DNA of 63,739 nucleotides, counting the filler, from a bacterium (lineage in GTDB: Bacteria; JBDRGX01): NCBI GenBank assembly GCA_043817485.1. It is 7 parts of 7 records of this genome, joined end to end, with 100 filler letters (N's around TTAATTAATTAA, not from the genome) between each part and the next. Parts side by side here need not be neighbours in the genome. Positions count along the whole stretch, not along the records: positions 7,665 to 17,403 come from JBDRGX010000044.1; 6 more parts are not named here. One strand, written 5' to 3'. Below the pieces are notes generated by a model, which saw only the letters and a list, made by a program, of their open reading frames with translations, was not told the DNA's origin and did no database searches. Position 1 is the first letter of the stretch. Each line of letters begins with the position of its first letter. This document shows, one piece after another, positions 3,492 through 29,298 of the stretch. The translations under genes and the position numbers were made by a program.

Positions 3492-3800
3492 GAGAGATGA
3501 TGGTCAAAATGCCAGTTTATATTGAATTACTATATTAATGACAAAAAATAGTTGTTTATATATAATTAAGAATTAAAAATGAAGGAAGAATATAATAAAA
3601 GACAGAATTCAGAATATAGAATGAAATTTTGATAGAAAAATTCCACCCTCTGTCCTAATGGACAACCATGCCAGCAGGGGACATTAGGAGTATTGAAAAA
3701 TTTTATATTTTCAATCCAAAATCTAAATTCTAAAATTGAAAAAGCCGTAATAAAATCAACACAGTTAGTGTTTGAATACAATTTGGGAAAGAGGCATATT

Positions 3801-7488: not shown

Positions 7489-7664
7489 ATGTAAAATATT
7501 CAAAAATTACATTAAGCATTTAACAAAATTTTTTATAAAAAATATATTTTAAAATTATTTATTGNNNNNNNNNNNNNNNNNNNNNNNNNNNNNNNNNNNN
7601 NNNNNNNNTTAATTAATTAANNNNNNNNNNNNNNNNNNNNNNNNNNNNNNNNNNNNNNNNNNNN

Positions 7665-7777
7665 GTGTCATAACTCTAAATCTAGACATCCACACCACAA
7701 CATATTGTGGTTTTGTGGAAACCTACCACTTTATGTTGTAAAACAATTGCCGTGAAATTGAATTATGACACAGTCTC
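7665..7777. mobile_element. MITE-like element, copy A (left 6 bp cut by contig end), with two NrdR-box-like sites
   Basis: Ends gtgtcataa / ttatgacacagtctc are inverted repeats; internal ccacaacatattgtgg (7695) and ccactttatgttgtaa (7726). Confidence 0.7.
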
Positions 7778-7792
7778 ATGAATTGCCCCTAC
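7778..7792. repeat. Right half of a GTAG-type REP palindrome
   Basis: atgaattgcccctac is the right arm of gtaggggcaattcatgaattgcccctac. Confidence 0.65.
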
Positions 7793-7802
7793 AAAATTAT
7801 TT

Positions 7803-9230
7803 TTACTTCAACATCAACATTTTTTTACAATTTTGTGTTTTGTTATCAACAATTGTTTCATAAAAATACATTCCTGATGAAACTTCTTTTCCTAAATTAT
7901 CTCTTCCATCCTAATATACTGAATTATTTGAATTATTTGTAATTACTTCTCTAACTACTTGACCAAGGATATTGTATATTTTTACTTTAACATTTGAGGT
8001 TTGATTTTTGTTGTTTGAAATTTCTATTGGAATATAACATTCGGGATTAAATGGATTTGGATAATTTTTAATTTTAGATAAATTCAAAGAATCTTTATTA
8101 TAATTTAAAGAAGTGTCTTCTACTGTTAATTTAATAGAATTTAATATAGCACCCTTAGGATAACTCGGAACATATTCTGGAGGATAATGAGGATTACTAT
8201 AGTTAGAGGTATGATCATTAAAAGCAACTAATCTAAATTCTATTGTTTTGCCATCTACTTCTGCTTCTATAAAGCACTGTTCGCCTTCTCCCCAAACATC
8301 ATTTTCTTGAAGACCTAATCTATATCTTTGTTCAGGGTTATTATATGATTCAAGAAAGTTACTACTGTATGTCCAAGTTCCATTTGCACCACCTGAAGGT
8401 ACTTCTATAAAATACATACCATGTCTTAATGTTCTATAATATATATGATCATGCCCATGTAACCAAGTAATAGTAAAATATTTTTTATTGGGATATTTAT
8501 TTGCAAAATAATCATACATCTTCTTTAATTTTTGAATACTATTATCACTATATCGATGACAAGGAGCATAAGCACTTACATGCTGAAAAAGAACAATGTG
8601 ATCTATTTTCCCAATAGCACTATTAAAAAGATCATCTAAATAATTTTGTAATTCTGTCATTCTATTATTATTTATAGGATCATCCCAAATATATTGACCA
8701 TTTTTATAAATAAATTGGCTGGCATTTATACTAATAAACCTAACATTTCCAAAATCAAAATAATAATCCATATTTTCTTTAGTTTGTCCAGGAAATCCTG
8801 ATGCTTTTAAATATTTATCAAAATCTTCATCATTACTACTATCACGATGAACGTCATGATTTCCAGGACTAATAAAGTGAGCAATTTGTGAACGATTCGT
8901 TCCCCATAATTCTTCAAACTTAGCCCAGTCTTTTACATCTGTTCCAGCACCATACCAACTAATTACATCACCATTATTTAGTAATAATTGAATATTTCTT
9001 TCTAATAAAGTAGATTGAAATATATTTGTTTTTTCAAGATATTCAGCTGTTACTGTTGATGCTGTATGAATGTCTGCTGTAGCTCCAAATTTCCATTTTC
9101 CCGTAGGAGAAGGTTTTTGGGATAAAATATCCATAGGATTATATCCAAAAACATTGGTAGCAATAAAAACCAACAGAAAAATTAAAACTCTTTTATATAT
9201 CTTTATATACTTTTTGTTAATTTTTTTCAT
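7803..9230 (-). pseudogene. Secreted calcineurin-like metallophosphoesterase with FlgD-Ig/T9SS-type tail, interrupted by in-frame TAG at 7911-7913
   Basis: ADIH, GDV, PGNHD, HGHDH motifs; NYPNPFNP; the frame continues past TAG as DGRDNLGKEVSSGMYFY..MLMLK, matching the paralog at 42155. Confidence 0.8.
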
Positions 9231-24109: not shown

Positions 24110-25225
24110 TTAATGATTTAACCCTGTTTTTTTAAATGCTTTCCAAGTATATTTACATCTTGGATTCCAAAAAAGCCATTCTTTAATATCACAATCATAA
24201 CTTGCTTTAATTTGAGCAAAAATTTCATTTTCTCCATAATCATATTTTAAAGAAAAATTTTGAAGCCAAGGTCTTATTTTATATTTTTCTTCTTTTAATT
24301 GTTTTATTGCATCTTGTAAAGATAAAAAAATTATTTTATAAGGATCCTTTTCAGGCACTTTAATATTATAAGAATTTTCATAATAATGAGAAGGATAAAT
24401 CATTGGACAAATAAAATCTACATATTCAGCTATTTTTTTAAAATTTTGACCAATTCCAAAATCTCTTCCAGTAGTAGTTACTCCAAAAACATCTATTGAC
24501 AAAAAACCAAAGAGTCTTAATTCTTTTGATGCTAATTTAACAAAATCTAAAATAGCATCGTCTTTAATTTTATAAAGTTCATTTTTTTCATAACAACAAT
24601 TTTTTAAAATACCTTTATCTGGAAATCTAACATAATCAAAATTTACTTCATCAAAACCTAAATCTAAAGCTTCTTTTGCTAAAGCAATGTTATATTGCCA
24701 AACTGTTTTCATATAAGGATTTGCCCATGAACAACCTGTTTCATCCTTCCAAATTTTTCCATCTACAGTTTTAATAGATAATTCTTTTTTTTGAGAAGAT
24801 AAAATTGGATCTTTAAAAACCACTATTCTCGCAATTTTATAAAGATTATTTTGTTCACAAATAAAAATTATATTTTTTAAATTAGAAATGCGTTTTTCAA
24901 CAGCATTTATTTCATAAGCTAAAGGAATTTTTGTTTCATAACTTACAATTCCATCAGCTTCTTTAAGATCTATGACAACAGAGTTTATTTCAGATTTTTT
25001 TATATTTTCAATTATTTCAAAAAATATTTTTTGTGTTCCTACTACCCAACTTGTTAAATGAATGCCTTTAACATTCTCTGGTTTTTTTCTAATTAATGAA
25101 GTAGGCTTTTCAATTAATAAAGGTTTTTGAATAATTTGAGGAAAAAACAAAATAAAAAAATTTATTAAAAAAATACTTATTAAATACCGATATGTTTTAA
25201 TATAATTTCCTTTCCCATTTCCCAT
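24110..25225 (-). CDS. Putative glycoside hydrolase (DUF4015-like)
   Basis: VKGIHLT, NSVVIDLKE, ARIVVFKD, GFDEVNFDYVRFP, PMIYPSHY, RPWLQ. Confidence 0.85.
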   Translation of the reverse strand: MGNGKGNYIKTYRYLISIFLINFFILFFPQIIQKPLLIEKPTSLIRKKPENVKGIHLTSWVVGTQKIFFEIIENIKKSEINSVVIDLKEADGIVSYETKIPLAYEINAVEKRISNLKNIIFICEQNNLYKIARIVVFKDPILSSQKKELSIKTVDGKIWKDETGCSWANPYMKTVWQYNIALAKEALDLGFDEVNFDYVRFPDKGILKNCCYEKNELYKIKDDAILDFVKLASKELRLFGFLSIDVFGVTTTGRDFGIGQNFKKIAEYVDFICPMIYPSHYYENSYNIKVPEKDPYKIIFLSLQDAIKQLKEEKYKIRPWLQNFSLKYDYGENEIFAQIKASYDCDIKEWLFWNPRCKYTWKAFKKTGLNH

Positions 25226-25288: not shown

Positions 25289-25307
25289 GTAGAGAGGGCA
25301 ATTCATG
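25289..25307. repeat. Left half of a GTAG-type REP palindrome
   Basis: gtagagagggcaattcatg, complementary to the half-site at 7778..7792. Confidence 0.6.
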
Positions 25308-25412
25308 GAGACTGTGTCGCAATAGAAATTTGGCATGAGAAGTATACAACATGTTGTGCCAATATTAGCAATAAATACTATATATGGGATAGTTTTGCCA
25401 TTAATTATCAAT
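25308..25412. mobile_element. MITE-like element, copy B (right end cut by contig end), with two NrdR-box-like sites
   Basis: Starts gagactgtgtc; atacaacatgttgtgc (25344) and atactatatatgggat (25375) at the same offsets as in copy A. Confidence 0.65.
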
Positions 25413-25610
25413 NNNNNNNNNNNNNNNNNNNNNNNNNNNNNNNNNNNNNNNNNNNNTTAATTAATTAANNNNNNNNNNNNNNNNNNNNNNNNNNNNNNNN
25501 NNNNNNNNNNNNAAAGAGAATCTGTATTAAACAAAACAGTCCAAGAAAAAAAAAGACAAAAAAAATTTGCCAAATTAAGCCCCTTTTAATAAAATAAATA
25601 AAAATTAAAA

Positions 25611-29221: not shown

Positions 29222-29298
29222 TGGTGGGCGGTACTGGATTCGAACCAGTGACCTTTTGCGTGTCGAGCAAATGCTCTAACCAACTGAGCTAACCACCC
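29222..29298 (-). tRNA. tRNA-Val(GAC)
   Basis: Cloverleaf GGGTGGT..TAGCTCAGTTGGTTAGAGC..TTTGC-TCGACAC-GCAAA..GGTTCGAATCC..ACCGCCC-ACCA. Confidence 0.96.

Follow-up and report, generated by a model that had tools for sequence, protein, structure and literature searches.

Is the short repeat that opens contig C44 a mobile element with an operator for NrdR, the repressor of ribonucleotide reductase (RNR) genes, at its centre, or do its two palindromic boxes have another meaning? The locus was analysed within a DNA stretch of 63,739 nucleotides, hereafter called the window, which is composed of seven whole contigs (C43, C44 and C46-C50) joined by N44-TTAATTAATTAA-N44 linkers. The contigs belong to a MAG of 1.42 Mb (146 contigs, 24% GC, 92% complete). 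A preliminary description had reported two copies of a repeat with paired NrdR-like boxes in the window. What it stated about sequences and coordinates, about boxes at offsets 37 and 68 and about 15-bp linkers was all borne out (Table 1), and the observation itself, i.e. a repeat with paired boxes, is confirmed as real.

The two copies in the window

Both copies are located at contig extremities: the first base of C44 already belongs to copy 1, and copy 2 extends to the final base of C46. This position is explained by the abundance of the repeat, which was too high for the assembly to cross it. Likewise, many contigs stopped about 140 bases past a MITE terminal repeat. The full type A unit, to which copy 1 belongs, is 119 bp long and reads GAGACTGTGTC...GACACAGTCTC. 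Its leftmost 'gagact' lies outside the window at copy 1 and had only been deduced; it is displayed by 11 complete units elsewhere in the genome. Copy 2 had been presented as a second unit of the same kind. This stood as far as boxes and offsets are concerned, but not for a closed 119-bp unit: identical copies on other contigs continue directly into unrelated repeat DNA and display no second terminal repeat, so that copy 2 represents an end of some longer repeat.

Copy 1 is accompanied by an ORF resembling metallophosphoesterases (7911-9230, minus strand), and copy 2 by an unrelated ORF of 371 aa (24110-25225, minus strand), in agreement with the reported absence of an adjacent nrd gene at either copy. 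The copies followed no pattern relative to the genes around them, being downstream of one and upstream of another.

Table 1. Location of the two repeat copies, their boxes, ends and surroundings in the window.
Feature	Position	Strand	Remarks
Artificial linker, C43/C44 junction	7565..7664		non-genomic
Type A MITE copy (copy 1)	7665..7777		left end lost at C44 start
Copy 1 box 1, CCACAACATATTGTGG	7695..7710		NrdR key positions 6/6
Copy 1 box 2, CCACTTTATGTTGTAA	7726..7741		key positions 5/6 (T for A6); 15-bp linker between box 1 and box 2
Copy 1 right terminal inverted repeat core, GACACAGTCTC	7767..7777	-	
Target palindrome right half, ATGAATTGCCCCTAC, beside copy 1	7778..7792		half-site of GTAGGGGCAATTCATGAATTGCCCCTAC
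Target palindrome left half, GGGCAATTCATG, beside copy 2	25296..25307 (25290-25307)		
Type B1 copy (copy 2)	25308..25412	+	terminal repeat and box pair, to C46 last base
Copy 2 box 1, ATACAACATGTTGTGC	25344..25359		key positions 6/6
Copy 2 box 2, ATACTATATATGGGAT	25375..25390		key positions 6/6; linker 15 bp
Artificial linker, C46/C47 junction	25413..25512		non-genomic

At gathering score, Rfam returned a single tRNA for the whole window (29225-29298, minus strand) and no family on the element; with E-values up to 1, the eight loci searched gave spurious miRNA-type matches, beside the element only. The window also contained a second, unrelated repeat family with inverted ends TACCAAGTCGCATTCAAACGCTAACTGTGTTGGC ... 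GTTATCATTTTGAATGCAACTTGGTA (about 3640-3790 and about 21648), of which some two dozen copies occurred genome-wide. Some of these displayed an inserted GC-rich hairpin module (CCCCCGCTGGCGGGGG), and this family had no Rfam match at gathering score either.

Copy kinds and their divergence

Genome-wide, about 29 assembled copies of box-bearing kinds were recorded, distributed into 11 of type A, 14 of type B1, three of type B2 and one diverged. The 11 type A copies (nine of them complete) shared 98-100% identity; the diverged A copy stood at 77%. Altogether, the genome displayed 11 complete units with both ends and about 50 assembled ends, and closed B-type units with both ends present were located on C75, C102 and C103. 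Units were 117-119 bp long without coding capacity, and all types could be aligned along their entire length.

Comparison of types A and B1 revealed identity at 51 of 105 aligned positions, which was unevenly distributed. Terminal repeats shared 12 of 17 positions, box 1 12 of 16 (75%) and box 2 9 of 16 (56%), whereas the spacers were at 26-41% (5/19 in arm 1, 4/15 in the linker and 9/22 in arm 2). Boxes are thus better kept than spacers, and the claim that the copies differ over most of their interior yet keep both boxes was upheld.

Beyond type B1 the sequence continues as TGTATATATAAAGACTT..., and this region adjoins type A as well, in the opposite order. This continuation was observed at the contig ends C60, C63, C67, C68, C79, C89, C109, C139 and C140, as well as at C58:32013-32165. 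One flank of type A was always constant, and the larger repeat that joins B1 and type A was absent from the assembly. Three groundwater metagenome runs from one study contained at most 0.19 of the sampled words and left copy 2 unextended; they provided short contigs on the repeat only, with other flanks and with the variant that has a 2-nt deletion in box 1. A metagenome scan with a 39-nt B1-specific word gave no match. One type A copy (L001:3566-3684, i.e. C78:40565-40683) seemed to interrupt the 3' part of an ORF and not a palindrome; it was followed by a tandemly duplicated unit of about 140 bp and by the start of a DUF559-like gene.

An IS1182-type MITE

The terminal repeat can be written as (G/C)AGACTGTGTC followed by R-Y-AAT. 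Its 18-base form, GAGACTGTGTCGTAATTA, also bounds a decayed IS1182-type element (C104:4862 to about 6128) whose reading-frame fragments match PF13751 (DDE_Tnp_1_6, 72.8 bits) and NCBIfam NF033551. A second IS1182-type remnant, with a stop codon, was found on C105. The IS1182 transposase copies assembled in this genome were all decayed, and multi-copy ISs may escape an assembly of 146 contigs. An intact element was uncovered in genome G043, a member of the Bacillota with box-bearing MITEs. It is 1,599 bp long and encodes a transposase of 449 aa (373 bits against NF033551, for a cut-off of 270), and its variant end, CAGACTGTGTCAAAAC, is common to the intact IS and to the MITEs of that genome.

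Since its ends are common to elements with an IS1182-family transposase, the unit is almost certainly a MITE of IS1182 type. This agrees with the earlier proposal of a non-autonomous transposon, for which the unit has the gene-less organization, the many copies and the ends, and also with the parent family that had been guessed, as the same ends were found on the decayed C104 element and on the intact G043 one. In G041 (Omnitrophota, 2.1 Mb), the terminal-repeat word occurred 123 times, for no occurrence of its reversed control, and many of these words were solo ends beside REP-like hairpins. Two terminal-repeat pairs spaced by 1.15-1.3 kb in G041 were considered as autonomous elements and rejected, as they enclose ordinary genes and no transposase.

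The usual insertion site of the MITE is the centre of a 28-bp palindrome, GTAGGGGCAATTCATGAATTGCCCCTAC. A half-site of this palindrome adjoined 23 element ends, and the palindrome was found intact ten times (e.g. C78:17570-17597). It is dispersed and looks like a REP-like family used as a landing site. Flanks in other genomes were also inverted repeats, specific to each genome, and no consistent target duplication was observed at non-palindromic sites. Some IS1182 members are described as targeting palindromes, and IS1272 as inserting into inverted repeats without target duplications (accessible part of PMC5678879). In single-strand folding, only the terminal repeats paired (z of -4.0 and -2.2), with neither a long fold-back nor pairing between box 1 and box 2.

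The box pair and the NrdR rule

According to the accessible part of PMC13584703, the experimentally derived NrdR site consists of a pair of 16-bp boxes with 15-16 bp of linker between them, the boxes being highly conserved at C4, A6, A8, T9, T11 and G13. C4 and G13 are critical, with at least 63% AT between them, and Table 1 of that source reports NrdR proteins binding heterologous boxes; the proteins of E. coli and S. coelicolor are among those described as doing so. Over the 12 key positions of a pair, copies 1 and 2 scored 11/12 and 12/12, respectively, with C4 and G13 intact in both boxes. The AT content between C4 and G13 amounted to 75-88% across the four boxes of the window.

Ten pairs with a 15-16 bp linker reached 12/12 in the whole genome, all in this repeat, for a mean of 0.03 in 30 local shuffles; MITE copies are non-independent events, yet the four diverged kinds (A, diverged A, B1 and B2) each keep the pair. 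When the threshold was set to at least 11/12 with C4 and G13 present, 22 pairs were obtained (mean of 2.7 in 30 local shuffles), among which 17 were in the repeat, one just upstream of nrdD and four elsewhere. Only 17 of the 29 copies passed the NrdR rule in this genome. The looser regular expression for box pairs that appears in the accessible part of PMC12051234 yielded 69 matches versus 31 in shuffles in this 24% GC genome; the six-position rule was preferred because this expression is unspecific in an AT-rich genome. As a positive control, the strict pattern picked nrdD promoters in two other genomes, among two and four matches.

The description of the boxes as NrdR-like was thus supported, since they fit the rule in the accessible part of PMC13584703 well above the shuffle background. 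The central pair displays every sequence feature of an NrdR operator, and, as far as sequence can tell, the MITE boxes are probably true NrdR sites.

Elements with the same ends in other genomes

One genome per species was scanned for AGACTGTGTC followed by 92-102 bases and GACACAGTCT, which provided at least 63 loci, whereas about six chance matches were expected (our own estimate). Hosts were quite diverse and included Omnitrophota, Desulfobacterota-type lineages, Clostridia, other Bacillota, Bacteroidota and Elusimicrobiota, together with Schekmanbacteria, Firestonebacteria, Binatia and Nitrospirota-type MAGs. The matches listed were 112-122 bp long each, with widely different interiors, many of which contained two GC-rich hairpins. 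The 40 genomes in which relatives were compared share only the domain with the present one, which is alone in its phylum there.

A pair of at least 11/12 was present in 14 of the 63 elements among the matches listed, versus none of 123 flank controls of the same size. In all 14 of these elements among the matches listed, the first box started at offset 35-37, and 13 of them had a linker of 15-16 bp. At the level of clusters, again among the matches listed, 11 of 41 held a pair of at least 11/12 and 30 did not.

The ten box positions that had played no part in the selection could be read from the 22 boxes of the 11 clusters as A-Y-A-.-W-.-Y-.-.-R-.-W-.-T-R-K (A1, C/T 2, A3, W5, T/C 7, A/G 10, W12, T14, A/G 15 and T/G 16). 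They match both the consensus of the preliminary description and the validated boxes listed in Table 1 in the accessible part of PMC13584703. The starts of single boxes were concentrated at 35-38 and 66-68, and linker lengths had their maximum at 15-16 bp. From lengths and offsets, the pair was centred between arms of 34-36 bp in 10 of the 11 box-bearing clusters. Box-bearing lineages spanned 27-46% GC, and their arms and linkers could not be aligned with one another. A metagenome scan for the end combined with the strict pair gave 13 loci, and one metagenome lineage of about 30% GC displayed near-ideal boxes (GCACTATATATAGTGC and ACACTACATGTTGTGT).

Variation inside the genome

The critical C4 of box 1 was replaced by T in 4 of the 11 type A copies, at different loci, and a 2-nt deletion in box 1 was common to 5 of the 14 B1 copies. 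Variable sites were denser in the boxes (6/64 positions) than outside (8/166). Since box-broken variants have multiplied, no evidence of recent purifying selection is seen, and spread in this host did not require the boxes. The boxes are thus conserved over the long term between lineages, whereas constraint is relaxed among the recent copies. Such relaxation fits either a host that lost NrdR or copies spreading within larger repeats, and the box module may be losing its function in this MAG. The earlier argument that conserved boxes imply selection finds support between lineages, where boxes and geometry recur with unalignable spacers, but not among the recent copies of this genome.

nrdR and ribonucleotide reductase genes

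A search for nrdR in the host genome, as had been advised, did not recover the gene from this 92%-complete assembly: nothing matched TIGR00244, the best tblastn E-value obtained with four NrdR queries was 0.63, and the only ATP-cones were the two in NrdD. With the MAG 92% complete, the gene may have been left out of the bin, and its absence is unproven. The only RNR gene found was nrdD (class III, contig C32, L015:1-1803), with two N-terminal ATP-cone matches. Its promoter displays a box pair of its own (11/12, linker of 16 bp), which argues for an NrdR that would be present or recently lost. A TTGACA motif stands four bases before the first NrdR-type box of this promoter.

Elsewhere, nrdR occurred in all seven other genomes whose MITEs hold a pair of at least 10/12 (the match in G042 had two stop codons), and also in 21 of the 28 genomes whose MITEs lack boxes. 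This association is weak (one-sided hypergeometric of about 0.18, calculated by hand), and nrdR presence was discarded as a discriminator of box-bearing MITEs. One Bacteroidota genome without nrdR had box-less MITEs. In G043, a strict 12/12 NrdR-type pair (C28:18463-18503, i.e. L106:2464-2504) was observed where an ORF begins whose product has a family A DNA polymerase domain; here NrdR could act on a gene other than those for RNR, perhaps in a prophage replication module.

Alternative explanations

The reading of both loci as ordinary nrd promoters, with genes hidden in contig gaps, could appeal to the fact that both copies adjoin contig ends. It is excluded by copy number and flanks: the same units occurred at about 29 loci with differing flanks, complete copies were found between unrelated genes or inside an ORF, and the single RNR gene, nrdD on C32, has its own operator. 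A second possibility is that the boxes are not NrdR sites. They could be short palindromes extruding as cruciforms, or sites of the transposase or of another factor, which resemble NrdR boxes by composition and symmetry. Each box is indeed a small palindrome that folds by itself, AT-rich palindromes are common at 24% GC, other family members have a pair of GC-rich hairpin palindromes in this position, and box-broken copies still spread. Yet the NrdR pattern holds at all 16 positions across lineages with GC contents of 27-46%, the linker has the 15-16 bp required by NrdR, and nrdD promoters are what the strict rule otherwise finds. Moreover, the ends of full-length, autonomous ISs have no boxes (best pair scores of 7-9, which is the background level), so that transposase sites are improbable in particular. 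We consider this explanation unlikely as a whole.

The same modest credit is given to the possibility that the boxes are real NrdR sites but only cargo, acting either as decoys that titrate NrdR and thereby raise RNR expression or as portable operators through which neighbour genes would respond to dNTPs. It shares the motif evidence of the best explanation, and about 17 intact pairs face one nrdD operator in this genome; one B2 copy even displayed a promoter-like TTGACA-16-TATTGT overlapping box 1. However, promoter scans remained at shuffle level with no promoter-like site common to the subfamilies, flanking genes showed no pattern of arrangement, and nrdR was not found in the assembly. The fixed central position and the equal arms would also be left without reason. 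A relic, finally, would have arisen by ancestral capture of a piece of nrd promoter, with functionless boxes kept by recent copying only. IS1182 elements seek palindromes (accessible part of PMC5678879) and NrdR boxes are palindromes, which together with the unconstrained boxes of this genome would favour such an origin. It is nevertheless quite improbable, given that boxes remained intact while arms and linker diverged beyond alignment across several phyla, and given the box identities of 75% and 56% between A and B1 versus 26-41% in arms and linker.

Proposed role of the box pair

The best explanation overall, with a probability of roughly 0.35, is an IS1182-type MITE with an NrdR operator at its centre that would serve to bend the element. 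An IS1182-family transposase would move the MITE of 117-119 bp in trans via the shared ends. Its exact centre would be an NrdR operator made of two 16-bp boxes, 15-16 bp apart, and in hosts making NrdR the tetramer loaded with dATP/ATP would bind this pair. NrdR is reported to introduce a kink of nearly 90 degrees into each box (accessible part of PMC9110341). Bound to the MITE, it would thus produce two in-phase kinks of about 90 degrees and give the element the shape of a U whose two arms each measure about 35 bp. With a central pair, arms of 34-36 bp and such kinks, the two ends would be brought together for the transposase, and folding would offset the stiffness of so short a DNA. The 1.6-kb parent would need no such aid, and it has no boxes. 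Sister MITE lineages, with two hairpin palindromes at the same place, may carry a protein-free equivalent. A folding role would account both for the constant length and for these two-hairpin centres. This bending and end-pairing role of the box pair is put forward tentatively.

Since DNA binding by NrdR requires loading with both dATP and ATP (accessible part of PMC13584703), mobility would follow dNTP status, and a requirement for NrdR would tie the MITE to it. In its widest form, the proposal would make NrdR a host architectural cofactor of a MITE family spanning phyla, with transposition licensed only at high dNTP pools; this extension is rather doubtful.

Relation to known elements and operators

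IS1182-family elements that target stem-loops, such as IS1272 of staphylococci, and their miniatures resemble the present ones by shared ends, insertion into palindromes and lack of a consistent target duplication. Their full-length members have ends without NrdR-type boxes, and the central pair is specific to the miniature form. The MITE pair likewise shares with the NrdR operators of RNR promoters the two 16-bp boxes, the key bases, the linker of 15-16 bp and the AT-rich core. It differs from them in that it occurs outside an RNR promoter, in about 29 mobile copies and in an assembly where nrdR was not found. It was therefore not classed as an RNR operator, as it departs from these in location and in a detectable cognate repressor.

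Host-factor sites are known from other mobile DNA. Correia elements (CREE/NEMIS) of Neisseria carry IHF sites, and IHF and DnaA sites are located at the ends of IS10/Tn10 and IS50, respectively. Such sites for host bending or replication proteins shape the transposition complex or couple it to the state of the cell. The MITE would similarly carry a host-factor site, in this case for a putative NrdR, but unlike these examples it displays a two-box operator at the exact centre of the element. REP/BIME sequences are dispersed and intergenic like the target palindrome, and sister MITE lineages have REP-like hairpins in their centre. In contrast to REP/BIME, the MITE has transposon ends and a transposase partner.

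To our knowledge, NrdR has so far been tied to RNR genes only. In the literature, no paper was found that links NrdR with MITEs, transposition or repetitive elements, nor any description of a central NrdR-type pair in IS1182-type MITEs. IS1182-derived MITEs are known, and what appears to be new is the predicted NrdR-type box pair in their centre. Surveys of NrdR sites were restricted to the 500 nt upstream of RNR operons, according to the accessible part of PMC12051234, and could not have seen sites in MITEs because of this restriction. Searches of this kind miss such sites, and in repeat-rich genomes the copies could far outnumber true operators.

If NrdR binds these MITEs, its regulon would extend beyond RNR genes, and a sensor of the nucleotide pool would be wired into mobile DNA of many phyla. 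Transposition would then be linked directly to dNTP status, or RNR control to the load of repeats. The fixed length and the swappable, symmetric centre of a very short transposon would find an explanation as well.
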